From Candidatus Methylomirabilota bacterium (GTDB taxonomy: Bacteria; Methylomirabilota; Methylomirabilia; Rokubacteriales; CSP1-6), in NCBI GenBank assembly GCA_046726415.1, contig JBKPAK010000053.1:1-17291 (forward strand): DNA of 17,291 bases. The letters are read 5' to 3'. Of this stretch, positions 1 to 17,291 are shown in pieces. Position 1 is the stretch's first letter, and the number at the start of each line of letters is the position of its first letter. The notes under the pieces are model-generated. The model was not told the DNA's origin. It was given only the letters and a program-made list of their open reading frames with translations, and searched no databases. The translations under genes and the position numbers were made by a program.

Positions 1-138
1 GTCGAGGAGCGCCCCGGGTTGCCCGGGGCGCTGCGCGCGGTGGGGGGGGTTGGGGGGCCGGTGGTCGAGGAGCGCCCCGGGTTGCCCGGGGCGCTGCCGA
101 GCGGTGGGGGGTTTGGGGGGCCATTTCGGGGCCCCCCA
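1..138. repeat. GC-rich palindromic tandem repeat (REP/BIME-like), two ~63-bp units plus a terminal hairpin
   Basis: GTCGAGGAGCGCCCCGGGTTGCCCGGGGCGCTGC starts at both 1 and 64. Each unit has a perfect 11-bp stem AGCGCCCCGGG-TTG-CCCGGGGCGCT (8-32, 71-95). The terminal hairpin TGGGGGGCC-ATTTCGG-GGCCCCCCA (114-138) abuts the amidohydrolase stop. The array may continue beyond the left edge. Confidence 0.85.
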
Positions 139-1278: not shown

Positions 1279-1303
1279 CGCGCCCTCCTCTCGAGGATGC
1301 GCG

Positions 1304-1333
1304 ATCGTACCCGCGTTTCTCCCGCGGCGGCAA
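1304..1333 (-). promoter_or_regulatory. Putative sigma70-type promoter for the amidohydrolase
   Basis: Minus strand TTGCCG (1333-1328), 18 bp spacer, TACGAT (1309-1304). Confidence 0.45.
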
Positions 1334-1474
1334 GGGTCTCCGGCCTGCCTGACTTTCTGGGCGATATCCACGCTGGTCACTCTGGTCTACACTGTGGCGC
1401 GGATGTCGGGTTCGATCACGAACGGGCGTGCCGACGTCTCGAGGGCGCCCTGACTGATCCGGGAGGGGACATCG

Positions 1475-2449: not shown

Positions 2450-2457
2450 GGGTGCCG

Positions 2458-3429: not shown

Positions 3430-3477
3430 CGCGACGAGGGCGCGGCGAGCAGTGACCTCAAGTGGGAGGAGGAACGC

Positions 3478-4104
3478 ATGATCCACGAAGTTCGCACGTA
3501 CACGCTGCGCACCGGGGCGGTGGCCGAATTCGAGGACCGCTTTACCAAACGCAAGCCGCTGCGGGAAAAGCATTCGAAGCTGGGGGCCTTCTGGCACACC
3601 GACTTTGGGCCCCTCAATCAGGTCATCCACGTCTGGGCCTACGAGGACCTGCAGCATCGCACCGCGGTGCGGGAGGCGATGGCCAAGGACCCGGAACTGA
3701 ACCAGCTTCCCGGTGGCCGGGACCTGATCCTCGCGCAAGAGGCCGACATCATGATCCCGGCTCCGTTCATGCACCCCCTGGGCAGCCGCGACTTCGGCAG
3801 CGGGAACGTGTATGAGATGCGGATCTACACTTACGCGCCGGGCGACATTCCGGCCGTGCTGGAGGCCTGGGGCAAGGCCGTTCCTGCCCGCGAGAAATTG
3901 TCACCTCTGGCCGCCTGCTGGTCCAGCGAGCTCGGCGGGCTAAACAAATTTGTGCACGTTTGGGTGTACCCGGACCTCAACGCGCGCGTTCGCATCCGCG
4001 AGGAATCCCGCAAGGGTGGGCAGTGGCCGCCCCAATCCGGGGTGCGGCCGATCCGACAGGAAAACAAGTTGCTGATCCCGGCAGCATTCTCACCCCTGCG
4101 GTAG
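3478..4104 (+). CDS. NIPSNAP family protein (two tandem NIPSNAP domains), 208 aa
   Basis: SD GGAGGAGG. Two domains: IHEVRTYTL...GPLNQVIHVWAYEDL...IMIPAPF and VYEMRIYTY...GGLNKFVHVWVYPDL...LLIPAAFSPLR. Confidence 0.92.
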   Translation: MIHEVRTYTLRTGAVAEFEDRFTKRKPLREKHSKLGAFWHTDFGPLNQVIHVWAYEDLQHRTAVREAMAKDPELNQLPGGRDLILAQEADIMIPAPFMHPLGSRDFGSGNVYEMRIYTYAPGDIPAVLEAWGKAVPAREKLSPLAACWSSELGGLNKFVHVWVYPDLNARVRIREESRKGGQWPPQSGVRPIRQENKLLIPAAFSPLR

Positions 4105-4116
4105 TCTTCGATCCAG

Positions 4117-4191
4117 ATGGGGGGCCTCGACATGGCCCCCCATGCTTCTCGCACTCGGAGGCCGATGGGGCGTCAGCTTCGGCGCTCCGAG
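4117..4191 (+). repeat. Second copy of the REP-like palindrome plus an adjacent hairpin, possible terminator or mRNA stabiliser
   Basis: ATGGGGGGCC-TCGACAT-GGCCCCCCAT (4117-4143, 10-bp stem) matches the reverse complement of 114-138 at 23 of 25 positions. A second stem CTCGGAG-GCCGA...TCGGC-G-CTCCGAG spans 4154-4191. Confidence 0.8.
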
Positions 4192-4247
4192 CTTGGAGGA
4201 CGTTCCGGGCCGGGTCACTCCGTGGTTCTCCGATGCGTGATGCCGTC

Positions 4248-4276
4248 TTGACTCCGCGGGCGGGCTAGCGCAGCCT
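4248..4276 (+). promoter_or_regulatory. Putative promoter for the second E1 alpha gene
   Basis: TTGACT (4248-4253), 17 bp spacer, CAGCCT (4271-4276). Confidence 0.4.
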
Positions 4277-4324
4277 CTCAGGACGGATCTAGGAAAACAC
4301 CCAACGGCGCGAGGGGCGTGTCCA

Positions 4325-5308
4325 ATGACGACGCAGGCAATCGAACCGCGGATGGAGCTGGAGCAGAACCTCCACATGTACCGCCAGATGGCGAAGATTC
4401 GCGCCTTCGAGGAACAGGTGCACGAGCTGTACAAGAGCGCGAAGATGCCGGGCCTGGCCCATCTCTACGTCGGCGAGGAGGCGGTGGCGGTCGGCGTCTG
4501 CGAGGCGTTGCGCCGCAACGACTTCATCACCAGCACGCATCGCGGGCACGGCCACTGCCTGGCCAAAGGGGCATCGGTCAATCGGATGTTCGCGGAGCTG
4601 CTCGGCAAGGAGTCGGGCTACTGCCGCGGCAAGGGCGGCTCGATGCACATCGCCGATCCCGAGACGGGGAACCTCGGCGCCAACGCCATCGTGGGCGGTT
4701 CGGCCGGCATCGCCACCGGCGCCGCGCTGTCGGCCAAGATGCGGGGCAGTGGACAGGTGGCCGTATGCTTCTTCGGCGACGGCGCGCTGGGCCAAGGCCT
4801 GGTCTACGAGGCGATGAACATGGCGGCACTCTGGAAGCTCCCCGTCATTTACGTCTGCGAGAACAACCTCTACGGCGAGTACACGCCCTGCGGCGAGACG
4901 GTGGCCGGCGAGATCCTGGCGCGGGCCCGGGCTTTCGGCATCCACGCCGAGACGGTCGACGGCCAGGACGTCCAGCTCGTGAACGCGGCGATGCGCAAGC
5001 TCGTCGAACGCGCGCGCCGCGGCGAGGGGCCGGCATTCCTCGAGTGCAAGACCTACCGGTACTACGGCCACCACGTCGGCGACGTCAACCGCGAATACCG
5101 CACGCGGGAGGAAGAGAAGGAGTGGATGAGCCAGCACGACCCCCTCCAAACCTTGGCCGGGCGGCTCACTGCCCAGGGGCTCGCCGACGCCACCGTCTTC
5201 GAGCGGATCCAGACCGACGTGAAGGCGGAGATCGACACCGGCGTGCAGTACGCCCTGTCCGCGCCGTACCCGGAGGCAACCCAGGTCGACGAGGACGTCT
5301 ATGCCTGA
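4325..5308 (+). CDS. Second ThDP-dependent dehydrogenase E1 alpha-like subunit (AcoA-like), 327 aa
   Basis: Motifs STHRGHGH, GKGGSMHIAD, FFGDGALGQG...VCENN and ECKTYRYYGHHVGD. SD-like GAGGGG upstream. No beta gene follows. Confidence 0.93.
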   Translation: MTTQAIEPRMELEQNLHMYRQMAKIRAFEEQVHELYKSAKMPGLAHLYVGEEAVAVGVCEALRRNDFITSTHRGHGHCLAKGASVNRMFAELLGKESGYCRGKGGSMHIADPETGNLGANAIVGGSAGIATGAALSAKMRGSGQVAVCFFGDGALGQGLVYEAMNMAALWKLPVIYVCENNLYGEYTPCGETVAGEILARARAFGIHAETVDGQDVQLVNAAMRKLVERARRGEGPAFLECKTYRYYGHHVGDVNREYRTREEEKEWMSQHDPLQTLAGRLTAQGLADATVFERIQTDVKAEIDTGVQYALSAPYPEATQVDEDVYA

Positions 5309-5456
5309 GGTGATGCTGGCGACATCGCGCCTCTCGCCCTCGGGGCCGCTCGCCACCGCGTAGAACGAGCGACCGCGCGCCGCGTGGGCCACCCATCGGC
5401 GTCGACGAGACCCGCCCCCGTCATCTGCGCCTTCCGCGATCGTCGTTCGGTCGCGC

Positions 5457-6800
5457 TCACCACGACACCTCGTGGGCACCAGGCACGACCACCCGCTTGT
5501 AGCGCTCCGGCGACTCCCCGAGCGGCATCGTGGCGTCGAAGCCCATCTTCGACGAATGGCGGTGCACCGGGGCCGACGGATCGAGTGGCGCGCCGACCAT
5601 GGGCGGAAAGATCATTGCGTCGGCGCTCGGCTGGCACCGGGTATACACGGCCCATAGGACCTGGTTCAGATCGCGCACGTTGACATCGGGGTCGACCACG
5701 ATGCAGTACTTGGCCTGGGGCGCCCCGGCCGTCGGCCCCAGCACGCTGAGAATCACGTTGCGCGCCTCGTAGGCCAGGCGCTTCTTGATCGAGACGATGG
5801 CGAAGTAGTACGGGCCGATGGCATGCACGTCGACGACTTCGGGGCAAGCCTGCTGGGCCATGCGCTTGATGGACTCGCAGATGGCCGGCCACGCCTGCAC
5901 GTGGTTGTCGGTGGTGGGCATGCCGGTGAGGGCCGTCTGGTACATGGCATCGCGCCGCATGGTGACGGCGCTGACCTCGAAGACGTGGCGATCGCCCAGG
6001 AGACCGTAAGTCCCGGCGACTTCCCCGAACGGCCCCTCGGGTTCGCGGACCTTGGGCAGGAAATGACCCTCGATGACGATCTCGGCGTCGGCAGGCACCT
6101 CGGCGTCGACTGTCTTGCAGGTGACCAGCTCGATTGACTGGCCGGCGAGCGCGCCGGCCACGCCCAGCTTTTCCTGGGCATGCGGGATCTTGGCCTGCGA
6201 GCCCAGGTCGACGAATGGGCCGGCGCCTAGCACGACTGCCACGCCGAAGCGCTCGCCGCGGTCCTCCGCCTTCAGCGCGGCACGACCCACCCGGCGCTCG
6301 GCGGGCATGTTGACGCCGAAGCGGCGGGGCCCCTTGAGCTGCATCCGTTGGAGACCGACGCCAAGGACGCCGGTTTCCGGGTCGCGCCCGAACATCACGC
6401 CGGCGGTGAGGTAGCGGCCAGCGTCGAGCTCCGAGTGCACGACGACCGGCAGCCGCGTGCAGTCGACCTCTTCGCCGGTAAGGACCATCTCCTGGCAGGG
6501 CCCGCTCGAGATCCGGCGGGGCGCGATGGGCTTGCGCACCGCCTCGCCGTACCGGTCGACGATCTCGCCGATGGGACAGCGGAGCGCGACGGGCAGGCGC
6601 GCCATCGTGCCGTAGAGCCCTGCCGCCACCTTCCAGCCCGGATGGCCGGTCACGTTCTCGAAGAGGAACGCCGGGCCATCCGTGTCGGACGACTTGCGCA
6701 CATAGGCCGCAATCTCGAACTCGGGGCGAACGGCCTTGCCGATGTGCACGAGCTGGCCGGCGCGGCTGAGCGCTTCGAGGTAATTGCGGAAGTCCGACAT
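5457..6800 (-). CDS. UbiD family (prFMN-dependent) decarboxylase, 447 aa
   Basis: N-terminal MSDFRNYLEAL...GPAFLFENV. Catalytic R152 and EGPFGE (E255/E260). Also VPADAEIVIEG, IVVDPDVN, LDPS and KMGFDAT. SD-like AGGGAG upstream. Confidence 0.92.
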   Translation of the reverse strand: MSDFRNYLEALSRAGQLVHIGKAVRPEFEIAAYVRKSSDTDGPAFLFENVTGHPGWKVAAGLYGTMARLPVALRCPIGEIVDRYGEAVRKPIAPRRISSGPCQEMVLTGEEVDCTRLPVVVHSELDAGRYLTAGVMFGRDPETGVLGVGLQRMQLKGPRRFGVNMPAERRVGRAALKAEDRGERFGVAVVLGAGPFVDLGSQAKIPHAQEKLGVAGALAGQSIELVTCKTVDAEVPADAEIVIEGHFLPKVREPEGPFGEVAGTYGLLGDRHVFEVSAVTMRRDAMYQTALTGMPTTDNHVQAWPAICESIKRMAQQACPEVVDVHAIGPYYFAIVSIKKRLAYEARNVILSVLGPTAGAPQAKYCIVVDPDVNVRDLNQVLWAVYTRCQPSADAMIFPPMVGAPLDPSAPVHRHSSKMGFDATMPLGESPERYKRVVVPGAHEVSW

Positions 6801-6928
6801 GCGTCCTCCCTGTGATCACCCGCGGGCGGCTATCGTAGTATAGGCGGCGGCTGCTGACCACGGCACCACCCTGCTTCACTTTGGGTCGTCCGAGCTTGGG
6901 GTAGCGTTGTCACTCCTGGAGAGGTGCC

Positions 6929-7027
6929 ATGATGAACGTCTACGCGTTCTGCACCGGGTCCATCGAGCTGGACCGCGCCAGCATGATCTCTGATCTGGCT
7001 CCGGGCTAGCGCTGGGCCGTGCCTCTC
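6929..7027 (+). pseudogene. 5' relic of an N-acyl-homoserine-lactonase-like (MBL-fold) gene
   Basis: SD GGAGAGG then MMNVYAFCTGSIELDRASMISDLAPG*RWAVPL, with an in-frame TAG at 7007. It resembles the N-terminus of AiiA/AttM-like MBL hydrolases, and the resemblance ends before any HxHxDH motif. Confidence 0.5.
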
Positions 7028-7071
7028 GCTCTTCGACGCTGGTCACGAGCCCTGAGTGGAATGAGCGCGTG

Positions 7072-7107
7072 TTGACATATTGATGCTTAGCCAGTATGTT
7101 TTGATGC
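7072..7107 (+). promoter_or_regulatory. Sigma70 promoter of vapBC with a direct-repeat operator, leaderless
   Basis: TTGACA (7072-7077), 17 bp spacer, TATGTT (7095-7100). The ATG lies 7 nt later with no SD. TTGATGC is repeated at 7080-7086 and 7101-7107. Confidence 0.75.
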
Positions 7108-7359
7108 ATGCGCACTACGATTCGCCTGAACGAAGAGCTCCTACGCCAGGCGAAGGCACTTGCCGCCCGGACGGGTCGAACGCTCACCGCAGTGATCGAG
7201 GACGCACTGCGCGAGACCCTTGCCCGGCAGCGCAGCCGCCAGGAGCGGCCGCGGGTGGCCCTGCCCACTTTCCGAGGCAACGGCCTGCAGCCGGGTGTCG
7301 ATCTCGACGACACCGCCGGCCTCCTCGACATCATGGACGGCAGCCGTGATCCTTCCTGA
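7108..7359 (+). CDS. vapB: Type II antitoxin VapB (ribbon-helix-helix/CopG-like), 83 aa
   Basis: MRTTIRLNEELLRQAKALAARTGRTLTAVIEDALRE fits an RHH pattern. C-terminal LPTF...PGVDLDD. Overlaps the PIN gene. Confidence 0.88.
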   Translation: MRTTIRLNEELLRQAKALAARTGRTLTAVIEDALRETLARQRSRQERPRVALPTFRGNGLQPGVDLDDTAGLLDIMDGSRDPS

Positions 7360-7774
7360 CGTCAACGTGCTGGTGTACGCGTATCGCGAGGATGCGCCGA
7401 GGCATGACCGGTACCGGATTTGGCTGGAGGGCGTGCTCAATGCGCGTGAGGCCTATGGTCTTTCGGACCTCGTGCTGGCCGGGTTCGTGCGCGTGGTCAC
7501 CCATCCTCGGGTGTTCTCCCCGCCGAGCCCCACGGGGCACGCGTTCGAGTTCGCCGAGGCGTTGCGGGGTCACCCGAACTGCGTCCACGTCGTGGCCGGG
7601 GAGCGCCACTGGGACATTTTCGCCGGGCTGTGTCGCGACGCGCGGACCAAGGGCAACCTCATTCCCGACGCCTATCTGGCCGCGCTCGCCATCGAGTCAG
7701 GAAGCGAATGGATCACGAGCGACCGGGATTACAGCCGCTTCCCCGGTCTGCGCTGGCGCGATCCTGGCGCCTGA
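7346..7774 (+). CDS. vapC: Type II toxin VapC (PIN-domain RNase, mycobacterial-type), 142 aa
   Basis: GTG start, MILPDVNVLVYA...FVRVVTHPR...GNLIPDAYLAALAIE...TSDRDYSRFPGLRW, with conserved PIN Asp residues. Confidence 0.92.
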   Translation: MILPDVNVLVYAYREDAPRHDRYRIWLEGVLNAREAYGLSDLVLAGFVRVVTHPRVFSPPSPTGHAFEFAEALRGHPNCVHVVAGERHWDIFAGLCRDARTKGNLIPDAYLAALAIESGSEWITSDRDYSRFPGLRWRDPGA

Positions 7775-7789
7775 GGGAAGCAGGACTCA

Positions 7790-7800
7790 TATAATCGCCG
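7790..7800 (+). promoter_or_regulatory. -10 element for a leaderless MNT-HEPN transcript
   Basis: Perfect TATAAT at 7790-7795, ATG at 7803 (7 nt later), no SD. Confidence 0.6.
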
Positions 7801-7802
7801 CC

Positions 7803-8225
7803 ATGCGACGTAAAGCGCCGCTTCCGGCGGAGATCGAACAGCGGCTGGCCACGCTCGGCGCGGTCCTCGAGGCACAGCCGGCGGTCCGGTTCGCCTATGT
7901 GTTCGGGGGGGCGGGACGCGGGACGCTCCGCCCGCTGAGCGACGTCGACGTGGCGGTGTACCTCGACGATGCGGTGGATCCGGTGCAGACGCGGCTCGAC
8001 CTCATCGGCGTGGTGACGAAGCACCTCGGCACCGACGAGATCGATCTCGTCGTCCTGAATCGGGCGGCGACCGCCCTGCTCGGACGTATCTTGCAATCCC
8101 GACGGATCATCGCCGAGAAGGACCCCTTCCTGCGGCACCGCTTCGAGTCGCTCGCGCTCCGGCAATTCCTGGACTTCCGCGTCTTCGAGCAGCGCTTCCT
8201 GGACCGCCGTTTCGCCCGTGGTTGA
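7803..8225 (+). CDS. mntA: Minimal nucleotidyltransferase antitoxin (MNT, type VII TA), 140 aa
   Basis: YVFGGAGRGTLRPLSDVDVAV fits G[GS]x10DxD, followed by EIDLVVLN. Overlaps the HEPN gene by 8 nt. Confidence 0.88.
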   Translation: MRRKAPLPAEIEQRLATLGAVLEAQPAVRFAYVFGGAGRGTLRPLSDVDVAVYLDDAVDPVQTRLDLIGVVTKHLGTDEIDLVVLNRAATALLGRILQSRRIIAEKDPFLRHRFESLALRQFLDFRVFEQRFLDRRFARG

Positions 8226-8631
8226 CCGCGACCTGCTTCGCCGGAAACTGGCGGAGCTGGCGGAATACGTCAACCAGGTCTCCGAGTACCGTGGCCTCAC
8301 GGTCGAGCACTACCGCGCGGAGTGGAAGACCCAGCGCATCGTCGAGCGCACTCTGCAGATGGCGATCGAGGTGTGTCTCGACATGGCGAGCCACATGGTG
8401 GCCGACCGGGGACTGCGCGCACCGACGACGTACGCGGAAACATTCGAGATTCTCGTTCAAGCCAGCCTCATGTCGCCGGGCCTCGGCCGGGCGATGGTCG
8501 CGATGACCGGATTCCGGAACGTCGTCGTCCACGAGTACGCGCGCATCGACGCAGATACGGTGATCAGGATTCTTCGGGAGCATCTGGAGGATTTTCACCG
8601 GTTCGAGACCGAAGCGCTGCGCTGGTTGTAG
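8218..8631 (+). CDS. hepT: HEPN-domain RNase toxin (DUF86/HepT), 137 aa
   Basis: VERTLQMAIE and GFRNVVVHEY, which carries the RX4HXY motif. Directly downstream of MNT. Confidence 0.92.
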   Translation: MVDRDLLRRKLAELAEYVNQVSEYRGLTVEHYRAEWKTQRIVERTLQMAIEVCLDMASHMVADRGLRAPTTYAETFEILVQASLMSPGLGRAMVAMTGFRNVVVHEYARIDADTVIRILREHLEDFHRFETEALRWL

Positions 8632-8686
8632 AGGCTGATCCGGCGCGAGCGGCCGGCCGGGCCACCCGATCGTCCACGACAAACAG

Positions 8687-9880
8687 TCAGATCGCTCCGT
8701 CCTCCGCGAGGGCGCCTATCGCGGCGTCGCTGTAGCCCAACTCCTTCAGGATCTCCTGGCGGTGCTGGCCGAGCAGCGGCGACGGGCCGATCGTCGTCGG
8801 AGAGGCCGAGAGCTTGATCGGATTGCCGACGGTCACGTAGCGACCCCGCACCGGATGCTCGACCTCGACGATCATGTCGCGCGCGTGGAGGTGGGGGTCG
8901 GTGAGGATCTCGCCGGTATCGAGGCAGGCTCCACAGGGCACGCCGGCGCCGGCCAGGATCTTCATGACCTCGTGCTTCGAGCGTTTCGACGTCCAGCCCT
9001 CCATGAGCGCGTCGACCTCGTCCTTGCGCTGCCCGCGCGCCTCCGCGGTCTCGTAGCGCGGGTCGCCGATGAGGTCGCCGCGCCCGATGGCGCGTAGCAG
9101 CGGGTGCCACATCTGTTGCTGGGCGTAGATGAAGACGTAGTCGTTGGGGCCGCCGGGATGACAGCGGTACGTCGTTCCCGGCACTCCGCCCACGAGCTGG
9201 TTCCCCGTGCGTTCCCTCGCTTTGCCGAAGCGCTGGTGGTCCCGGATGCTCACGCGAACGAGATTCAGCACGGCGTCCTGCATCGACACCTCGATCTGCT
9301 GGCCTTCCCCGGTGGTCTGGCGCTGCATGAGCGCGGCCAGGATGCCGATTGCGCAATGCATCCCTGTCCCGGAGTCGCCAATCGATGGCCAGTGATACGT
9401 CGGCGGCCGGTCGGGGAAGCCGGTGACGCTCATGGCGCCGCCCATGGCCTGCGCGATGGGCTCGTAGCTCTTGTAGTCGCGGTACGGCCCGTACGAGCCG
9501 AAGCCCTTGATGCTCGCGTAGACCAGCCGCGGATTGAGCTGGTGGACTTCGGGATAGCCGAAGCCCAGGCGCTCGATGACGCCCGGGCCGAAATTCTCCA
9601 GGAGGACATCGGCCGTCTTCAGCAAGGCGCCAAAGACCTCCTTGCCGCGCGGGTTCTTCAGATTGACGGTCAGGCTCCGCTTGTTGCCGTTGAAGGAGAG
9701 GAAGAAGAGGCTATCGGCGTCGGGGCGATCCTTCATGGAGCTCCGCGCGGGGTCCCCCTTCTCGGGCTCCTCCACCTTGATCACGTCCGCGCCCAGCCAG
9801 GCCAGCATCTGGCCACACGACGGACCCGCCTGGTTGTTCGTGAGATCGACGACCCGGATGCCGGCCAGCGCTCCACTCAT
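8687..9880 (-). CDS. Class III CoA-transferase (CaiB/BaiF family, formyl-CoA transferase-like), 397 aa
   Basis: Motifs QAGPSCGQMLAWLGADVIKVE, NGNKRSLT, ENFGPG, IGDSGTGMH (catalytic Asp in a Frc-like context) and SPLLGQH. SD GGAGG upstream. Confidence 0.92.
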   Translation of the reverse strand: MSGALAGIRVVDLTNNQAGPSCGQMLAWLGADVIKVEEPEKGDPARSSMKDRPDADSLFFLSFNGNKRSLTVNLKNPRGKEVFGALLKTADVLLENFGPGVIERLGFGYPEVHQLNPRLVYASIKGFGSYGPYRDYKSYEPIAQAMGGAMSVTGFPDRPPTYHWPSIGDSGTGMHCAIGILAALMQRQTTGEGQQIEVSMQDAVLNLVRVSIRDHQRFGKARERTGNQLVGGVPGTTYRCHPGGPNDYVFIYAQQQMWHPLLRAIGRGDLIGDPRYETAEARGQRKDEVDALMEGWTSKRSKHEVMKILAGAGVPCGACLDTGEILTDPHLHARDMIVEVEHPVRGRYVTVGNPIKLSASPTTIGPSPLLGQHRQEILKELGYSDAAIGALAEDGAI

Positions 9881-9904
9881 CGGTCAGGACCTCCTTTCCC
9901 GCTC

Positions 9905-9960
9905 GATTCTACGTCGTGACAGATCAAATCCCGACTCGAGGCCTCGCCGGCGCTAGAATC
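9905..9960. promoter_or_regulatory. Divergent promoter region with mirror-image TAGAAT -10 boxes
   Basis: GATTCTA at 9905-9911 (TAGAATC on the minus strand) and TAGAATC at 9954-9960 on the plus strand, each facing one of the divergent genes. Confidence 0.5.
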
Positions 9961-9988
9961 AGGGCACATGCGAGAGGGAGGTCGCCCA

Positions 9989-10870
9989 ATGCCCGTCATC
10001 ACCCGCCAGATCGGCCCGTGCTTCGCCGCCGAGGTGGAAGGCGTCGATATGACCAGGCCCTTGTCCCCCGATGACGTGGCGGCGATCCATGCCGGCATGG
10101 ACCAGTACGCGGTGTTGGTGTTCCACGACCAGAAGATCGACGACGAGCAGCAGCTCGCCTTCACGCGCAGCCTGGGGGAGCTCGAGCACGCCATCGGCAC
10201 GAGCCTGCGCGCGCCGGATGACTACCGCCTGCCCACCACGTTCGCCGACGTGTCCAATCTCGACAAGCACAACAAGACGTTCGCCCGGGACGACCGGCGG
10301 CGGCTGTTCGCCATCGGCAACCGGCTCTGGCACTCCGACAGCTCCTTCAAGGTGGTCCCCGCGAAGTACTCGCTGCTGCACGCGCGGAGCATTCCGTCAA
10401 AGGGCGGCAACACCGAGTTCGCCTCCATGGTCGCCGCCTACGATGCGCTCGACGCCGAGACCAAGGCGGAGGTCGAGGAGCTGATTTGCGAGCACTCGCA
10501 GATCTTCTCGCGCCAGCAGCTCGGCTTCACCGACTTCACCGACGACGAGCGCGAGCGCTTCAAGCCGGTGCGCCAGCGCTTGGTCCGCACTCACCCGGTG
10601 ACGAAGCGGAAGTCGCTCTACCTGTCCTCGCACGCGGGCTCCATTCTTGGCTGGCCGGTGCCGGAGGCGCGGGCCTTTCTGCGCGACCTGGTCGAGCACG
10701 CCACCCAGCGGCAGTTCGTCTATGCCCACCGGTGGCGGGTCGGCGACCTCGTGATGTGGGACAACCGCCAGACCATGCACCGCGCCCGTCCCTTTCCGGC
10801 CCACGAGCCGCGCGATATGCGTCGCACCACGCTCGTCGGCGACGGACCGACCGCGGCTCAGGCCGCCTGA
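9989..10870 (+). CDS. TauD/TfdA family Fe(II)/2-oxoglutarate dioxygenase (TfdA-like), 293 aa
   Basis: SD GGAGG at 9977-9981 favours ATG 9989. Motifs GNRLWHSDSSFK (HxD), GGNTEFA and WDNRQTMHRA (distal His). Confidence 0.92.
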   Translation: MPVITRQIGPCFAAEVEGVDMTRPLSPDDVAAIHAGMDQYAVLVFHDQKIDDEQQLAFTRSLGELEHAIGTSLRAPDDYRLPTTFADVSNLDKHNKTFARDDRRRLFAIGNRLWHSDSSFKVVPAKYSLLHARSIPSKGGNTEFASMVAAYDALDAETKAEVEELICEHSQIFSRQQLGFTDFTDDERERFKPVRQRLVRTHPVTKRKSLYLSSHAGSILGWPVPEARAFLRDLVEHATQRQFVYAHRWRVGDLVMWDNRQTMHRARPFPAHEPRDMRRTTLVGDGPTAAQAA

Positions 10871-10886
10871 GGTCGCGAAGGCGACC
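10871..10886 (+). terminator. Short hairpin right after the dioxygenase stop
   Basis: GGTCGC-GAAG-GCGACC, with no U-tract. Confidence 0.3.
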
Positions 10887-11060
10887 AGCCCGACCCACCC
10901 ATTTCCGGCACGCGGTCGCGTTTACTGCCGCGCGAGCAGGTTGGCCAGGATGTCTCGGACCGTCGAGGGTCGGGAACTGAGGTCTCCTGCGGAGGTCGGT
11001 GGCGTTTCCCAGGCCCGGCTCGGGAGGTCGCCCATCAGCAGGTCGGCGCCCGCGACCGTC

Positions 11061-11094
11061 TATAATCGCCGAAGAGGCCAAGGAGAGGAGGTGA
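11061..11094 (+). promoter_or_regulatory. -10 box and strong SD for the micro-ORF/ABC-F unit
   Basis: TATAAT at 11061-11066 and AGGAGGTGA at 11086-11094. Confidence 0.7.
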
Positions 11095-11098
11095 GCCC

Positions 11099-11161
11099 AT
11101 GGCGAAAGGCAAGAGCATGCAGAAGGAGAAGAAGAAGCCGAAGCAAAAGAAGACGAAGTAG
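11099..11161 (+). CDS. 20-aa lysine-rich small protein or leader peptide MAKGKSMQKEKKKPKQKKTK
   Basis: ATG at 11099 with a near-perfect SD and an upstream TATAAT. Ten of 20 residues are Lys. TAG at 11159-11161 is 6 nt before the ABC-F ATG. Below the ORF-track size cutoff. Confidence 0.75.
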   Translation: MAKGKSMQKEKKKPKQKKTK

Positions 11162-11167
11162 CGTCGG

Positions 11168-12964
11168 ATGACTCGCTCGCTCCTGCTCAGCTGTGAAGCG
11201 ATCAGCGTGGCCTATGGGACCCGGTCGCTCTTCGACGATCTGTCGTTTGGGTTGTTCGAGGGCGACCAGGCCGGTCTGGTCGGCCCCAATGGCTCCGGCA
11301 AGTCCACCCTTCTGAAGATACTCGCCGGCGACATGACACCTGACCGCGGCACCCGCTCGCTCCGCGGCGGCGTCCGTGTCGGCTACGTGCCGCAGGACCC
11401 CGTCTTCACAGCCGGTCGCACGGTCAGCGACGTCGTGCTCACGGCGTTGGTCGAGGTGGGCGAGGAGGACAGACCCGGCCGCCTCGCGCACGCTCTCGGC
11501 CGCGCCGGGTTCACGGATGGGCGCGCGGAGGTCGACACGCTGTCGGGGGGCTGGAGGAAACGGCTCGCCATTGCGCGCGAGCTGGCGGCCGAGCCCGACG
11601 TTCTCCTGATGGACGAGCCCACCAATCACCTCGACGTGGAGGGCATTCTCTGGCTGGAAGGCGTGCTGTCAGAGCGGGCGCGCGCATTCCTCGTGGTCAG
11701 CCACGACCGCTACTTCCTGGAGCACGTGGCCACACGGATGCTCGAGCTGAACGGGGCCTATCCGGATGGCCTGTTCGAGAGCGAGGGTCGATACAGCGAG
11801 TTCCTCGCGCGCCGCGACGAGTTTCTGCGCGGGCAGGCGGCCTATCAGGAAACGCTGGCCAACACCGTGCGGCGCGAGATCGAGTGGCTCCGCCGCGGCG
11901 CCAAGGCGCGTTCCACCAAAGCGAAGGGGCGCATCAAGGAGGCGGGACGGCTCATCGAGGAGCTTGAGAAGAGCCGGGCGCGCGGCGCCACGGCCACGGC
12001 GGGGATCGACTTGGCGTCCACGCAGCGCCGGACGCGCCGGCTCCTGGTGGCGCGCGGCCTGACGAAGTCGCTGGGCGGCCGGCGGCTCGTCAGCCACCTC
12101 GATCTCGTTATCACGCCCGGCAGGCGCGTGGGCCTGATCGGCCCGAACGGCAGCGGCAAGACGACGCTCTTGAACCTGCTCGCCGGCACGCTGCCGCCCG
12201 ATGCCGGTGAGATCGAGCGGCCGGACGACCTGCGCATCGTTCGCTTCGAGCAAGAGCGCGGCGGCCTGGATCCCACCCAGAGCCTGCGCCGCGCGCTGGC
12301 CCCCGAGGGCGACGCCGTCACCTGGCAGGGCCGCAGTGTCCACGTCGCCTCGTGGGCCAAGCGTTTCCTGTTCCGACCGGAGCAGCTCGAGGTGCCGGTG
12401 GGCCGCCTGTCGGGTGGCGAGCAGGCCCGCATCCTCATCGCGCGCCTGATGCGCGATCCCGCCGACCTCCTTATCCTCGACGAGCCCACCAACGACCTCG
12501 ACATCCCCACCCTCGAGGTGCTTGAAGACAGCCTCGCCGAGTTCGATGGCGGGCTCGTCCTGGTCACCCACGACCGCTTCATGCTCGAGCGCGTGTCCAC
12601 CCTGATTCTCGCCCTCGACGGCGCGGGCGGGACGGCCACCTTCGCCGACTACGCGCAGTGGGAAGCAGCCCGGCGTGCGGTCGAGCCGGCGCTGCGTCAG
12701 ACGGCGGAACGCGCGTTCGACCGCGAACGGCCGCGGGCGAAGCGCCTCGCCTATCTCGAGCAGCGTGAGTGGGACGGTATCGAGCAGGCGATCCTGGCCG
12801 CTGAGGGCGCGGTCGAGGCGTGCCAGCGTGGGGTGGAAGACCCGGCGATCGCCTCCGACCCGAGCGCACTCCAGCTGCGGTATGCGGCGCTCGAGGCCGC
12901 ACGCGCGGAAGTGGACCGGCTCTACGAGCGCTGGGCTGAGCTGGGGGCCAAGCAGGACGCCTGA
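11168..12964 (+). CDS. uup: ABC-F family ATPase, Uup-like, 598 aa
   Basis: Two NBDs (GPNGSGKST/LSGG/DEPTNHLD and GPNGSGKTT/LSGGE/DEPTNDLD) and no TM segments. Linker EIEWLRRGAKARSTKAKGRI. C-terminal coiled coil ending LYERWAEL. Confidence 0.9.
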   Translation: MTRSLLLSCEAISVAYGTRSLFDDLSFGLFEGDQAGLVGPNGSGKSTLLKILAGDMTPDRGTRSLRGGVRVGYVPQDPVFTAGRTVSDVVLTALVEVGEEDRPGRLAHALGRAGFTDGRAEVDTLSGGWRKRLAIARELAAEPDVLLMDEPTNHLDVEGILWLEGVLSERARAFLVVSHDRYFLEHVATRMLELNGAYPDGLFESEGRYSEFLARRDEFLRGQAAYQETLANTVRREIEWLRRGAKARSTKAKGRIKEAGRLIEELEKSRARGATATAGIDLASTQRRTRRLLVARGLTKSLGGRRLVSHLDLVITPGRRVGLIGPNGSGKTTLLNLLAGTLPPDAGEIERPDDLRIVRFEQERGGLDPTQSLRRALAPEGDAVTWQGRSVHVASWAKRFLFRPEQLEVPVGRLSGGEQARILIARLMRDPADLLILDEPTNDLDIPTLEVLEDSLAEFDGGLVLVTHDRFMLERVSTLILALDGAGGTATFADYAQWEAARRAVEPALRQTAERAFDRERPRAKRLAYLEQREWDGIEQAILAAEGAVEACQRGVEDPAIASDPSALQLRYAALEAARAEVDRLYERWAELGAKQDA

Positions 12965-12986
12965 CCCCCAGCTCCGCCGGACGGAC

Positions 12987-14717
12987 TTATTTTCCTTCCA
13001 GGCCGGCCAGCGGCGCGTAGTCGAACGTCGAGCCGTGGCCTCCCGCGAACTTGAGCGGCGAGATGCCGGCCTTCTTCACGCCGGCGACGAGCGCGGCCGT
13101 GTTCGGGACGAGGCTGAGGCTGGCGGGTAGCGGAGCGGCACCGGGGCTCCAGATGTCGGTGACGTAGCCGAGGCGCGCTTCGGGGATGTAGCCGATCAGC
13201 ATGCTGGCGGCGTGAGGATTCTCGATGACATAGGCCTCGACCTGCCGCGAGCCGTCCGAGAACACGCGCTTGTCCACCACCTCGATGATTTCCGTCCGAC
13301 TGAGATCGCGCCCGGTGAGGTCGGGGTTGCGGGTGTACGGGGCGGCGAGGACGCGGCGGAAATGCTCACTGGCACCCCGGCCGACGACGAGCGTGGCGCC
13401 CTCGGCGACGTAGGCGCGCAGCCCGCCGGCGTGATCCATGTGGTGATGGGTGAGCACGAGGTACTTCACGGGCTTGCCGGGGTACTTCGCGCGAGCGGCG
13501 TTGAGCACCCAGTTCGACTGCGCGTCGCTCACCGGGGCGTCGAACACGATCAGGTGGTCGCGCATCTCGACGACCAGGCTGTGATGGGTGCCGCCGACCG
13601 CATGCTGAACCCCCGGCGCCAGCTCGTTGAACCGCAGTCCCGTCGACGCCCGCGTGTCGTAGCTGGGAGAGTCGGAGTCCATGTAGGTACCGATGAACTG
13701 CCGGCGGATGACCCACTGGTACGGCAGGGCGCCGGTCGCGGGCTTCGGCGCCCCGGTGATGTACGCCGTGGGAATCCCGAACCGCTCGGCGGGGACGGAT
13801 GCGTTGAACTTCACCTCGGTGAGCTTGATCTCGGCGACCACGCGGCCGTTCAGCTCGTACTTCCGCGTGGTGGCGACCTTCACGCCGTCGAAGGTCTGCC
13901 AGTCTGAGAGCACGAGATCGTAGGTCACGTCGCCCCAGATATTGTCATAGTCGAACGAGCGGATGCGCGCCGGCAGGCCAGTGGTGGCATCGAACATGAC
14001 CCAGAGGCTTTCGTAGAGCGGCACCGTCGCCGGCAGAGGCGGGCACGCGCTGCTGAAGTTTGTCCCCGGCGCGGGCAGATAGACCCCTTGGCACCATTGC
14101 GCGACCCCACTTCCGGGTGCCCCGGGTGTCCTCGGGATTGGGGCGTCACCCACGCGGTACTCGACGGTGGGATAGGCGACCCCGCCTACCGTCACGTTGG
14201 GAACGTTGTAGTCGTGCGCGGGGTTCCGGTACATATCGAGCAGCAGCAGGGCGGAGTTGCGTCGCAGCTCGCGCTGGCTGACGGCGAGGCGCAGCCCCGA
14301 CATGTTGTGGGCCGGTGGGTTCGAATCGAGACTCTGCTTGGTGCGCCCGTTGCTGTCGATGCCGGCCACATAGCCGACCTCCGAGGTGACGATCTCGGTG
14401 AAGGTGAACGTGCGAGCAGTCGGGTACGCGAACTTGCGCACCCAGTCGACGCGCGTGAACCCGCTGCTGGCGTCGGTGACCGAGTCGAATGTCGCCTCGT
14501 TGGCGAAGCGCATCTCCCCGCCGGGAGCCATCGACTGCTCGGGCTCCCATTGCTTCACCGTGCCCTTCATCGAGACGGTCTTCACACCGCGCAGTGTGTC
14601 GAGACCCCCGAGCGCATGGACGGCGCGGACTACGGGGTCCTGACTCTCTTGCGGCATCGTGGTACTCGACACCGCGACCAGGGAAACAATGGCGAGCAGG
14701 AACACAAGCCGCTTCAT
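12987..14717 (-). CDS. Secreted MBL-fold metallo-hydrolase with a large N-terminal domain, 576 aa
   Basis: SD GGAGGAGG, signal peptide MKRLVFLLAIVSLVAVS. THHHMDH (HxHxDH) plus ENPH, VTD and GGHG give a full metal-ligand set. The ORF-track start at 14963 is an over-extension. Confidence 0.88.
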   Translation of the reverse strand: MKRLVFLLAIVSLVAVSSTTMPQESQDPVVRAVHALGGLDTLRGVKTVSMKGTVKQWEPEQSMAPGGEMRFANEATFDSVTDASSGFTRVDWVRKFAYPTARTFTFTEIVTSEVGYVAGIDSNGRTKQSLDSNPPAHNMSGLRLAVSQRELRRNSALLLLDMYRNPAHDYNVPNVTVGGVAYPTVEYRVGDAPIPRTPGAPGSGVAQWCQGVYLPAPGTNFSSACPPLPATVPLYESLWVMFDATTGLPARIRSFDYDNIWGDVTYDLVLSDWQTFDGVKVATTRKYELNGRVVAEIKLTEVKFNASVPAERFGIPTAYITGAPKPATGALPYQWVIRRQFIGTYMDSDSPSYDTRASTGLRFNELAPGVQHAVGGTHHSLVVEMRDHLIVFDAPVSDAQSNWVLNAARAKYPGKPVKYLVLTHHHMDHAGGLRAYVAEGATLVVGRGASEHFRRVLAAPYTRNPDLTGRDLSRTEIIEVVDKRVFSDGSRQVEAYVIENPHAASMLIGYIPEARLGYVTDIWSPGAAPLPASLSLVPNTAALVAGVKKAGISPLKFAGGHGSTFDYAPLAGLEGK

Positions 14718-14750
14718 AGCGCCTCCTCCAGCCGAGGATCGAACCGCCGC

Positions 14751-14780
14751 ACGGTACTGACACGGCGCCCCGCATGTCAA
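14751..14780 (-). promoter_or_regulatory. Promoter of the MBL gene with an overlapping TGACA-N12-TGTCA palindrome
   Basis: Minus strand TTGACA (14780-14775), 18 bp spacer, TACCGT (14756-14751). Inverted repeat TGACA 14758-14762 and TGTCA 14775-14779. Confidence 0.55.
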
Positions 14781-14875
14781 GTCCGCCCAACGACCGGGCC
14801 TGGACAGATGTTCCCGCGGTAGAGCGCCCGGTGGGAGAATCCTGCCGGCGGCACGACCGACCAGGACATGCCTGT

Positions 14876-15253
14876 CTACGTGCTCACGAGGTTCAAGCCG
14901 GGGATGTCGCGATAGTCCGGGCCGTTCAGCGTCCACAGACCCGCGCCGTTCGCCAGGGCGCACGCGGCCACTCCGAGGTCGAATTCCCGGTGGCGCGCCC
15001 GCGGCAGCGCGCGATACAGGTCGGAGGCCAACGCCGCTTCCCGAGGACCGAACGGCACCGCGTGCTCAGCCGGGAGGAGCGCCTCCTGGTGAGCGAGCTC
15101 GGATGCGCGGCGCGGTCCGCGCAACCATTCATACAGGACAAACGCCGAGATGGAGATTCGCTCGCCACGATCCAGGATGTCGCGGAGGGCGGGCGCCGAG
15201 CGCCTCGGCCCCGTCAGCGCGTCGACCAGTGCCGAGGTGTCGAGGTGGATCAA
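14876..15253 (-). CDS. vapC: Type II toxin VapC (PIN domain), 125 aa
   Basis: MIHLDTSALVD...VLYEWLRG...REFDLGVAACA...WTLNGPDY. The TTG start overlaps the antitoxin stop by 4 nt. Confidence 0.9.
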   Translation of the reverse strand: MIHLDTSALVDALTGPRRSAPALRDILDRGERISISAFVLYEWLRGPRRASELAHQEALLPAEHAVPFGPREAALASDLYRALPRARHREFDLGVAACALANGAGLWTLNGPDYRDIPGLNLVST

Positions 15254-15540
15254 GGACGCCGCCGGCTTTCCCGACGCCGACCCCAGCGGCGCCGGGACGC
15301 TCGGATCTTTTCGAGCTCTGCGTCCACTTCGGCGCCCGATCGGGTGGGCGGCTCCTGGACCATGCGATCCACGAGCGCCAGCATCCGCGCGCGCTCCTCG
15401 TCGCTCAGCTTGGTGGACCGAGCCTCGTACTCCTTGATGGCTTCGCGGACCACGTAGCTCTGCGGCTTTGCCAGGCGAGATGCCGTCCTGCGCAGGCGCT
15501 CGACGGTCTGGTCATCGAGGGTGAACGTGACCTTTACCAT
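15250..15540 (-). CDS. vapB: Antitoxin, ribbon-helix-helix CopG family (VapB), 96 aa
   Basis: MVKVTFTLDDQTVERLRRTASRLAKPQSYVVREAI fits an RHH pattern. Upstream of and coupled to the PIN gene. Confidence 0.85.
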   Translation of the reverse strand: MVKVTFTLDDQTVERLRRTASRLAKPQSYVVREAIKEYEARSTKLSDEERARMLALVDRMVQEPPTRSGAEVDAELEKIRASRRRWGRRRESRRRP

Positions 15541-15573
15541 AGGCAACCATACTACCGTACCTGACCATACCAA
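15536..15573 (-). promoter_or_regulatory. vapBC promoter/operator with four heptad direct repeats, leaderless
   Basis: ACCATAG 15536-42, ACCATAC 15546-52, ACCGTAC 15554-60 and ACCATAC 15564-70. Minus strand TTGGTA, 16 bp spacer, TATGGT, with the ATG 5 nt later and no SD. Confidence 0.65.
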
Positions 15574-15764
15574 CTTCGCTGAACTGCTCCCGGGGCGTGG
15601 AAGCGGACCAGGAGCTCGAAGGGCCCGCGAGGTCTCGACCGCGCGCCAAGAGCACTTGACGCCGCTCCTCTTTCGGTCGACTCTCGGGCGCATTGAGCGA
15701 CTCGCGTAGCCTCCTGATCGAGCGCCGCCCGCGCGGGGCGGCCGGGGATGAGCCGGAGGGAATC

Positions 15765-17291
15765 ATGGACTCACAGGGGAGATCCTGGCTGCTACCGTCC
15801 CATCGAAACCTGGCCGTCATGCTCGTAGCCGCTCTCTTGACCCTGGGGGTAGCCCAGGCGGCAGTCGCGCAGACGCCGCCGGGAGAGGCCATCGCCGCCT
15901 GGCACGTCACCATCGCCCCGAGCTGGTTCGACCCGTCGACGGCCCCGCCTCAGGTCACCCCCTTCGGGCTGCTCTATGCCATGCACGACGCGTTGCTCCG
16001 CCCTCTCCCTGGGCAGAAGATGGGCAACAGCTTGGCGGAGTCGTGGAAAGAGAGCCCGGACGGGCTCACCTACGAGTTCAAGCTGCGCCGTGGGCTCAAG
16101 TTCCACAACGGTGACCCCCTCACCGCCGAGGACGTGAAGTTCAGCTTCGAGCGCTACAAGGGGGCGGGGGCCAAGGCCTTCCAGGAGCGGGTCCGCGAGG
16201 TGGAGATCGTCGATCCCCTGACCGTGCGCTTCCACCTCAAAGAGCCCTGGCCGGACTTCCTGACCTTCTACGGAACCTCGGCCACGGCCGCCGGCATCGT
16301 CGTGCCCAAGAAGTACCTGACGCAGGTGGGGGACGACGGCTTCAAGAAGCATCCGATCGGCGTCGGTCCCTACAAGTTCGTGAGCCACAAGCCCGGCGTC
16401 GAGGTGGTGCTGGAAGCCTATCCCGGATACTGGCGGCACGCGCCCCACGTCAAGCGGCTCACCATGAAGAGCGTCCCCGAAGGCACGACGCGCGTGGCGA
16501 TGCTGAAGAACGGCGAGGCGGACATCGGCTTTGCCCTCGACGGGGAAGACGCCGCAAACGTGAAGCGGGATGCGCGCCTGCAGCTCGTGGCCTCGCGGCA
16601 CGCGTCCATCTTCTGGATCGAGTTCGCCGACCAGTGGGACCCCAAGTCCCCGTGGGCCGACAAGCGGATGCGGCAGGCCGTCAACTACGCGCTGGATCGC
16701 AAGGCGCTCAACGAGTCCGCCTGCCTGGGCTACTGCCCGCCTGCCGGGGTCATCGTGCCGCGCGTCATGGACTTCGCCCTGCAGGTCGAGCCGCCGGCCT
16801 ACGACCCGCAGAAGGCGAAGCAGCTGCTCGCCGAGGCCGGCTATCCCAACGGCCTCGATGCTGGAGAGTTCGTGCCGATTCCCCCGTTTTTCCCGGTATC
16901 GGAAGGCGCGGTGAACTATCTGGGCGCGGTGGGGGTCCGGGTGAAGATGCGGACAGTGGAGCGCGCCGCCTTCTACGCCGCCTGGCGCGAGAAGAAGCTA
17001 CGTGGATTGTTTCTCACCGCCGTGGGGAACTCGGGCAACGCGGCCAGCCGCGTGGCGGAGTTCATCTACTCGAAGGGGGCGTATGCCTACGGAGGCTATC
17101 CCGACATCGACGACCTGTTCCACCAACAGGCGCGGGAGCGAGATCCGCGGAAGCGCGAAGCCGTGCTGTTCAAGATCCAGCAGCTCACCATCGACCGGGC
17201 GATGTTCGCGCCGATCATGGACCTGCGCGCCCTGATGGGCGTCGGGCCCCGGGTGGCCGACCACACGATCAACTCACTTGCACTGGTGCCG
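15765..17291 (+). CDS. ABC transporter substrate-binding protein, family 5 (DppA/OppA/NikA-like), 3'-truncated by the window edge
   Basis: SD GGAGGG and ATG at 15765. Signal-like LAVMLVAALLTLGVAQAAVA. LAESWKESPDGLTYEFKLRRGLKFHNGDPLTAEDVKFSFERY is the family-5 signature; also PIGVGPYKF and AKQLLAEAGYPNG. It is absent from the ORF track, consistent with no stop before the edge. Confidence 0.92.
   Translation, partial: MDSQGRSWLLPSHRNLAVMLVAALLTLGVAQAAVAQTPPGEAIAAWHVTIAPSWFDPSTAPPQVTPFGLLYAMHDALLRPLPGQKMGNSLAESWKESPDGLTYEFKLRRGLKFHNGDPLTAEDVKFSFERYKGAGAKAFQERVREVEIVDPLTVRFHLKEPWPDFLTFYGTSATAAGIVVPKKYLTQVGDDGFKKHPIGVGPYKFVSHKPGVEVVLEAYPGYWRHAPHVKRLTMKSVPEGTTRVAMLKNGEADIGFALDGEDAANVKRDARLQLVASRHASIFWIEFADQWDPKSPWADKRMRQAVNYALDRKALNESACLGYCPPAGVIVPRVMDFALQVEPPAYDPQKAKQLLAEAGYPNGLDAGEFVPIPPFFPVSEGAVNYLGAVGVRVKMRTVERAAFYAAWREKKLRGLFLTAVGNSGNAASRVAEFIYSKGAYAYGGYPDIDDLFHQQARERDPRKREAVLFKIQQLTIDRAMFAPIMDLRALMGVGPRVADHTINSLALVP

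Follow-up and report, generated by a model that had tools for sequence, protein, structure and literature searches.

A conserved 20-codon polybasic gene preceding a Uup-like ABC-F gene in Rokubacteria: candidate micro-protein and translational entry

What is the role of a 20-codon, lysine-rich reading frame that ends 6 nucleotides (nt) ahead of an ABC-F ATPase gene? The question is raised by a stretch of DNA of 17,291 nt from a Candidatus Methylomirabilota bacterium of the order Rokubacteriales (assembly GCA_046726415.1, contig JBKPAK010000053.1, positions 1 to 17,291 of the forward strand), which is called the window below. A preliminary description of the locus proposed that this small open reading frame (sORF) is a leader through which ribosome stalling sets ABC-F expression or, alternatively, that it encodes a free small basic protein that binds RNA or the ribosome. 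We found that the sORF has the features of a conserved polybasic micro-protein gene which in Rokubacteria would also serve as the translational entry to the ABC-F gene, a reading to which we give a probability of roughly 55%. The parts of the transcription unit are as follows.

11061-11066, plus strand: -10 box TATAAT, putative promoter element of the sORF/ABC-F transcription unit, read directly
11086-11094, plus strand: extended Shine-Dalgarno (SD) sequence AGGAGGTGA, 4 nt 5' of the sORF ATG
11099-11161, plus strand: sORF of 20 codons plus TAG (stop at 11159-11161), peptide MAKGKSMQKEKKKPKQKKTK, net charge about +9
11162-11167, plus strand: 6-nt spacer CGTCGG from the sORF stop to the ABC-F start, a probable termination-reinitiation junction
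11168-12964, plus strand: Uup-like ABC-F ATPase gene, 598 amino acids, with its ATG at 11168 and without an SD of its own

The sORF and its expression signals

The TATAAT box, the strong SD, the 20-codon frame and the SD-less ABC-F start on which the preliminary description was built were all present in the window. The sORF peptide is half lysine and contains a KKKPK stretch. The calculated duplex energy with the anti-SD sequence was -13.3 kcal/mol for the sORF and -2.2 kcal/mol for the 20 nt upstream of the ABC-F start, which bears out the claim of a strong SD at the first start and none at the second.

Conservation was analyzed with a hidden Markov model (HMM) built from six orthologous peptides and run on 183 genomes of the order. 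It matched once, and only once, in each of 93 of these genomes, the source genome (G000) included; besides the latter, the carriers were 91 of the further 158 genomes in family f1 and 1 of 21 genomes of family f4, and the remaining families of the order had none (0 of 3). Counting high-quality genomes alone, 40 of 77 were carriers, and a richer HMM found no sORF in 68 genomes of the phylum's eight other families. When all 93 loci were retrieved, 92 contained a clean frame of 17-21 codons, and the match in the genome G172 was excluded as not clean.

The 92 loci encode 54 distinct peptides from 80 distinct core DNA sequences. The peptide positions M1, K3, G4, M7, K9, E10, K12, K13, P14 and K15 were invariant, and synonymous variation was found at invariant positions, with two to four codons each (GCG/GCC/GCA, AAA/AAG, GGC/GGA/GGT/GGG, GAA/GAG and CCG/CCC/CCA). 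The ratio of nonsynonymous to synonymous differences (pN/pS) over codons 2-15 of the 80 distinct sequences was 0.155, a rough figure in that the pairs are not independent. The start codon was ATG in 62 loci and GTG in 30. The SD, at 4-7 nt upstream of the start, had a median energy of -12.4 kcal/mol over the 92 loci (range, -13.6 to -8.2), a median attained by 0.07% of 3000 random 20-mers of the genome, and the form GGAGGTGA or GGGGGTGA was kept in related loci.

We then analyzed the promoter. A consensus scan of the window found no full -35/-10 pair and no -35 element fitting the TATAAT, a hexamer with 106 copies genome-wide on both strands. Of the 92 loci, 58 have an exact TATAAT and 65 a 5-of-6 match in the 90 nt ahead of the sORF, and the DNA upstream of the SD was otherwise unconserved. 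The -10 box is thus the sole part of the predicted promoter that is supported, through its conservation in relatives.

Gene callers missed the sORF, and 20 codons are below their usual thresholds, as would be expected of a chance frame that is not translated. That reading is contradicted by the conservation, SD, promoter and selection data, and we give it next to no weight; judged from these sequence comparisons, the sORF is a real protein-coding gene under purifying selection and not a product of chance.

The genome of 7.6 Mb, with 67.5% guanine plus cytosine (GC), holds 7 stop-to-stop segments with at least 7 lysines per 15 residues in its six frames, and a six-frame search found the sORF peptide to be single-copy. 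Two further lysine-rich frames, unrelated in sequence to the sORF, lie on the minus strand of the genome contig C90 at about 29314-29407; one is a 19-codon stop-to-stop segment, and the other forms the end of a 90-codon segment whose tail is rich in A and K. Two frames of the window that overlap the sORF region (10941-11171, plus strand, and 11060-11629, minus strand) were dropped, having no Pfam match and lying in unconserved upstream sequence. Poly(A) slippage was also dropped, since AAG makes up 789 of the 861 lysine codons in the 92 loci and slippage is therefore not expected.

The junction with the ABC-F gene, and copies without it

The window ABC-F protein matched PF00005 (ABC_tran) twice (173.5 bits) in one chain without membrane domains, and its C-terminal coiled coil matched PF16326 (ABC_tran_CTD) with 50.1 bits against a cut-off of 32. 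Such a C-terminal domain is typical of Uup-type proteins, according to the part of the source available (PMC11381351). In NCBIfam, Uup (NF050005) was the top model among all ABC-F models, with 413 bits; since this is below the cut-off of 900, the protein is Uup-like and not a certified Uup ortholog. The assignment made in the preliminary description stands at that level. ABC-F orthologs with 63-87% identity were found in 83 of the 183 genomes of the order.

Linkage was scored at the 92 loci by tblastn with the window ABC-F plus inspection of the junction. An ABC-F ortholog lay directly 3' of the sORF in 65 of the 92 loci (about 70% of carriers), so that the conserved K-rich sORF anticipated upstream of orthologous ABC-F genes was indeed found. 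The 65 comprised 59 clean N-terminal matches and 6 that were cut by a contig end, interrupted in frame or overlapping. Without two loci (L031 and L033) from unpublished genomes (G011 and G047), 90 loci remain, 65 linked and 25 unlinked. Interrupted ABC-F genes follow the sORF at four linked loci (L057, L068, L081 and L096), where the best tblastn piece begins at residue 103-210, and L057 has a stop after 193 codons; these are either assembly frameshift errors or decaying genes.

In 64 linked loci the ABC-F start follows the sORF stop after 2-9 nt; 52 of these loci have a gap of 6 nt and 5 a gap of 5 nt. The remaining linked locus has a GTGA stop/start overlap. The ABC-F start codon in the 64 loci was ATG (44), GTG (19) or TTG (1). 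The 20 nt before it had a median anti-SD energy of -2.4 kcal/mol, weaker than that of random 20-mers (-3.2 kcal/mol). This geometry indicates termination-reinitiation coupling. Because the SD-less ABC-F start is tied to the sORF stop, translation of the ABC-F very probably depends on ribosomes that complete the sORF, as judged from the geometry of the junction.

The same junction could be taken to mean that read-through of the mostly UAG stop gives rise to a form of the ABC-F whose N-terminus is extended by the polybasic peptide. With gaps of 3, 6 or 9 nt, the sORF and the ABC-F share one frame in 54 of the 64 linked loci, and the sORF stop is TAG in 75 of the 92 loci, compared with 28% of the long frames of the genome (TGA, 64%). 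However, 10 of the 64 loci are out of frame and one locus has the GTGA overlap, and the TAG bias is the same in sORF copies without an ABC-F (21 of 27). The bias arises most simply by one-step changes of AAG lysine codons in the variable tail and calls for no release-factor mechanism. We consider read-through very improbable.

No ABC-F was found behind the sORF in 27 of the 92 loci. In at least 11 of the 27, the next Pfam-identified gene is convergent; these neighbours include acyl-CoA dehydrogenase (genus g42), RecQ, amidase, alcohol dehydrogenase, luciferase-like oxygenase, cold-shock protein and RNase H. In two other unlinked loci an unrelated gene follows on the same strand, encoding a CBS-domain protein and an HpcH aldolase. 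The pN/pS of the unlinked copies was 0.138 and that of the linked copies 0.166, and peptide length and charge were the same in both groups. Independent copies in relatives are the very finding that the preliminary description had named as refuting its proposal.

Seven of the 27 unlinked genomes (G015 and six of genus g42) carry the ABC-F ortholog elsewhere; the other 20 have no ortholog at E<=1e-120, some of them being 93-100% complete, although the absence proves nothing where a genome is incomplete. Three genomes of genus g34 (L097, L099 and L104) have an intact sORF with its SD and -10 box, followed by about 10 ABC-F codons without a start codon and then by a convergent gene, which reads as the scar of an ABC-F deletion.

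The ABC-F is also found without the sORF. In the six g42 genomes (L266-L271), an ABC-F of 63-67% identity follows a GIY-YIG-like frame, which in L267 (G137:C47) scored 49.9 bits in Pfam and has a GTGA stop/start overlap with the ABC-F. The ABC-F of family f4 either has an SD-like sequence of its own or is preceded by a TATAAT 8 nt from its ATG. At two loci, L015 (G033:C169) and L013 (G015:C120), a TATAAT or TATACT 8-9 nt before the ABC-F ATG, with no SD, suggests that the ABC-F mRNA is leaderless. The ABC-F thus appears to use whichever translational entry is available, and the peptide appears to be kept with or without it.

A ribosome-loading device, in which any well-initiated short frame would suffice and the peptide would be a functionless by-product, accounts for part of these observations. 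The ABC-F start lacks an SD in the 64 linked loci and is coupled to whatever frame precedes it, and a lysine-rich, purine-rich and unstructured mRNA favours initiation; the fold of 11070-11230 was less structured than its shuffles (z = +1.3; 184 of 200 shuffles at least as stable). This reading leaves unexplained the 15-residue core kept across the 54 peptide variants at the low pN/pS, the stand-alone copies and the presence of the same peptide in three phyla (below), and we regard it as improbable.

In the window, the unit is flanked by two genes.

9968-10870, plus strand: TauD-family dioxygenase gene, the upstream neighbour
12987-14963, minus strand: metallo-beta-lactamase-fold gene, the downstream neighbour, convergent

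Since the gene 3' of the ABC-F is convergent, the operon consists of two cistrons, the sORF and the ABC-F. Elsewhere, amid mostly metabolic genes, the window encodes a nucleotidyltransferase (Polbeta / NTP_transf_2) domain protein (7392-8225, plus strand) and a NIPSNAP protein (3478-4104, plus strand); several long frames (4289-5479 and 5299-6879) have no Pfam family.

Copies in other phyla

A scan with the degenerate pattern K-G-x-x-M-x-K-E-x-K-K-P-K over one genome per species gave at least 119 stretches. Eighty loci were examined and sorted as follows.

Rokubacteria / Methylomirabilota type: 41 loci
Acidobacteriota: 10 loci
Low-GC genomes (Saccharibacteria, Paceibacteria, Nomurabacteria, Kaiserbacteria, Uhrbacteria and the like): 24 loci
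False matches inside long frames: 5 loci, four of which are the N-terminus of Actinomyces SmpB

At least 34 loci beyond the phylum carry the same peptide, which over the three phyla spans 38-74% GC. The peptides of the matches listed beyond the phylum have 18-24 residues and the same core. The 24 low-GC loci include one each from Kapaibacterium, Elulimicrobium and 'Gammaproteobacteria', the last of which falls in the phylum of a Saccharibacteria genome. The sORF HMM matched 8 of 401 sampled Patescibacteria genomes (2 with E<1e-4) and 5 of 401 sampled Acidobacteriota genomes, including divergent members of up to 41 residues, and gave three weaker matches in another Patescibacteria sample. Five non-Rokubacteria genomes were tested for copy number and had one copy each. 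At L154, L159, L176 and L197 (Actinomyces / Schaalia), the N-terminal extension of SmpB fits the pattern as K-G-G-S-M-P-K-E-W-K-K-P-K; this match was treated as chance, though SmpB is also a ribosome-rescue protein.

Among the low-GC loci listed, 21 of 24 have a hairpin of 9-12 base pairs with a T-rich tail 0-23 nt after the sORF stop, so that the sORF there would be a single-gene unit. The terminator hairpin at L183 had a z of -4.5, and its 5' arm covers the last lysine codons and the stop. At L173 and L183 the order is sORF, terminator and ABC-F, with 89-94 nt from the sORF stop to the ABC-F start.

A same-strand ABC-type tblastn hit lay 90-900 nt downstream of the sORF in 13 of the 24 low-GC loci listed. 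Seven of these 13 downstream genes were checked with Pfam and NCBIfam, and all were ABC or ABC-F, with two ABC_tran domains where the locus was long enough. The best NCBIfam model was ribo_prot_ABC_F (about 290 bits on partial proteins), and identity to the window ABC-F was 26-32%; as these proteins belong to a different subfamily, their association with the sORF is an independent one. In the other 11 of the 24, there was no same-strand ABC-type hit within up to 1.5 kb downstream, less at contig ends. In several Patescibacteria lineages (L147, L201, L210 and L149), the order is a gene for a Gmad2-domain protein (about 195 residues), the sORF, the terminator, a frame of about 100 residues without a Pfam family and an ABC-F-like gene.

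Among the Acidobacteria loci listed, a gene for ArfB (177-180 bits; cut-off, 100) lay 30-90 nt downstream of the sORF in 2 of 10; the two share synteny and therefore count as one event. A YbiT-like ABC-F gene was divergent from the sORF in 1 of 10, and the remaining neighbours of the non-Rokubacteria loci listed were unrelated.

We also searched for earlier records of the peptide. Pfam and NCBIfam gave no match at E<=10 with four peptides of 20-24 residues. A protein-database search with P0003, a 41-residue divergent relative, gave two unnamed matches, and the ESM Atlas placed it nearest to clusters of 'hypothetical protein' of about 42 residues without Pfam family (score, 0.90), which serves as a lead only. 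Viral contigs searched with the sORF DNA pattern gave 0 matches. A literature search for the core-motif strings and for lysine-rich leader frames found nothing relevant, and the available part of a Sinorhizobium meliloti small-proteome study (PMC10117765) contains no such peptide. By these searches the sORF peptide family is undescribed, though genes this small may sit elsewhere as 'hypothetical protein'. Sequence words of the locus were found in 20 sequencing runs, mostly of soil DNA, and one soil RNA run held 6% of the words.

What the peptide may do

The preliminary description placed the main function of the sORF in a leader role. Part of this stood: the sORF is real and conserved and carries the promoter box and SD of the unit, and its stop is followed by the ABC-F start at a gap of 2-9 nt in 64 of the 65 linked loci. 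As the main function, the role was not supported, because copies without an ABC-F are equally constrained. A role as leader only is further opposed by the copies in other phyla, which are mostly single genes with a terminator, and by the ABC-F that is coupled to an unrelated gene in genus g42. On account of the constrained unlinked copies and the single-gene copies elsewhere, the alternative first raised with it, a free small protein, fits better than a leader, the binding of RNA or ribosome being putative.

A regulatory function can be put in a more general form, in which the sORF is a cis-acting sensor of polybasic or lysine-codon-rich chains, or of drug arrest at the basic motif, and sets the expression of a downstream ribosome factor. 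The sensor would act by termination-reinitiation in Rokubacteria and by occlusion of the stop-abutting terminator in low-GC lineages. The sORF does recur upstream of ribosome factors (65 of 92 Rokubacteria loci and, among the loci listed, 13 of 24 low-GC loci, with ArfB in 2 of 10 Acidobacteria loci). At L173 and L183 the terminator stands between the sORF and the ABC-F, and since its 5' arm at L183 includes the last lysine codons and the stop, a ribosome there would prevent the hairpin. YbiT relieves stalls at poly-basic sequences and Uup those at poly-proline, as far as the available part of one study goes (PMC11162784), and B. subtilis without YkpA/YbiT shows mild polylysine stalling in the part available of another (PMC11381351), so that polybasic stretches are documented ABC-F substrates. 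Uup is reported, in the accessible part of a preprint, to rescue stalled termination complexes, an activity that needs residues of its C-terminus and has a greater effect at UGA than at UAG (bioRxiv 10.64898/2026.10.08.757592), and resistance-type ABC-F genes are controlled by leader frames, according to the part seen of a further source (PMC10219788).

On the other hand, 27 of the 92 Rokubacteria copies have no target or an unrelated neighbour, many of them facing a convergent gene, and 11 of the 24 low-GC copies listed lack an ABC-type hit downstream, though 21 of the 24 carry a terminator. The window has no room for an attenuator, with its 6-nt gap, a fold less structured than shuffles and no Rfam match at E<=1 in 10700-11400. 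Pure coupling would lower ABC-F output upon stalling, a positive feedback with the wrong sign for homeostasis. A mere counter of lysine codons does not explain the invariant G4, M7, E10 and P14, and the ABC-F ortholog is also coupled to the GIY-YIG gene. We therefore hold a sensor to be unlikely, although it ranks first among the alternatives.

Among known systems, the leaders of resistance ABC-F genes (vmlR, msrD and cplR type) are likewise very short frames directly 5' of a ribosome-acting ABC-F, and some low-GC loci match their order of leader, terminator and ABC-F gene. However, the window has a 6-nt gap only, without terminator/antiterminator or SD-sequestering structure, its ABC-F is Uup-like and not of the resistance type, and the sORF peptide is cross-phylum and found without an ABC-F in 27 of 92 loci. 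To our knowledge, the known ABC-F leaders are lineage-specific and tied to their gene. Ordinary termination-reinitiation operons share with the locus a distal start that lies 2-9 nt after the stop or overlaps it and a distal gene without an SD, and the same ABC-F is coupled in this way to the GIY-YIG gene in another genus. Here, in contrast, the proximal cistron has 17-21 codons and is a conserved gene in its own right, which carries the -10 box of the unit and an SD in the top 0.1%.

The proteins bTHX, bL37, bS22 and eL41 are tiny, polybasic and lineage-restricted ribosomal proteins. The sORF peptide shares with them a size of about 20-30 residues, a very high positive charge, strong signals for expression and a patchy occurrence among lineages, but it is absent from about 40% of its own family's genomes, its profile matches no PDB chain and its ribosome binding is putative. 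The peptide also resembles the polybasic clients of housekeeping ABC-F proteins (YbiT, EttA and Uup/YfmR) as reported in the available parts of two studies (PMC11162784 and PMC11381351). Poly-basic stalls are assigned there to YbiT/YkpA and not to Uup, however, the sORF lysine codons are AAG, and stalling on the sORF peptide is hypothetical.

The favoured reading is that of a polybasic micro-protein gene with a second use as the translational entry to the ABC-F. The comparisons show that the 63-nt frame is a real and conserved gene, selected separately from the ABC-F, and that its junction has the geometry for coupling. Its product would be a polybasic micro-protein of 18-21 residues, with a family in Rokubacteria (Methylomirabilota), Acidobacteriota and Patescibacteria. 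Given its own -10 box and exceptionally strong SD, the micro-protein is probably produced abundantly. After terminating on the micro-gene, ribosomes would reinitiate on the ABC-F 6 nt on, so that the micro-gene would be the translational entry of a two-gene operon and both products would be made together. The peptide itself may be a trans-acting polycation that has RNA or the ribosome as its target and takes part in the process that the stalled-ribosome factors serve. We infer the trans role solely from the charge and from the repeated adjacency to ABC-F subfamilies and ArfB; the neighbourhoods probably point to translation and the charge (+9 on about 19 residues) to RNA, and the function is putative.

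In a more specific and doubtful form of this reading, the peptide is a facultative ribosome-binding micro-protein whose partners on stalled or idle ribosomes would be the E-site ABC-F ATPases and ArfB. If true, this would explain the repeated placement of the sORF beside such factors and their translational union in Rokubacteria.

Several points weigh against the favoured reading. Nascent-chain arrest peptides are also conserved in amino acids, so that pN/pS fits a cis-acting nascent chain as well and cannot separate it from a trans product. The sORF has a patchy distribution (40 carriers among the 77 high-quality genomes of its order, 8 of 401 Patescibacteria and 5 of 401 Acidobacteriota sampled), so that the peptide cannot be a core part of any system. 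Among the unlinked copies there may be recent relics, such as those of the three g34 genomes. The invariance of the core outside Rokubacteria was partly imposed by the search pattern, and the neighbourhood counts there come from 80 of at least 119 stretches, related genomes included. Ribosome binding gained no support from the PDB, where a profile of the 54 peptides had 0 matches at E<=10 among 177,635 distinct sequences of at least 20 residues. The contigs of the soil RNA run are fragmentary and lie at conserved ABC motifs, and as none spans the sORF they have no bearing on transcription.

Annotation pipelines do not see genes of 20 codons, and the core of this one is nearly identical in three distant phyla. 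The sORF has its own putative promoter, a ribosome-binding site in the top 0.1% and, in low-GC lineages, its own predicted terminator. An apparent leader peptide should thus be checked for stand-alone copies before its regulation is modelled. The adjacency of the sORF to ribosome-rescue factors and translation ATPases gives a testable hypothesis in a field that is still establishing what the natural clients of housekeeping ABC-F proteins are and with which partners they work.

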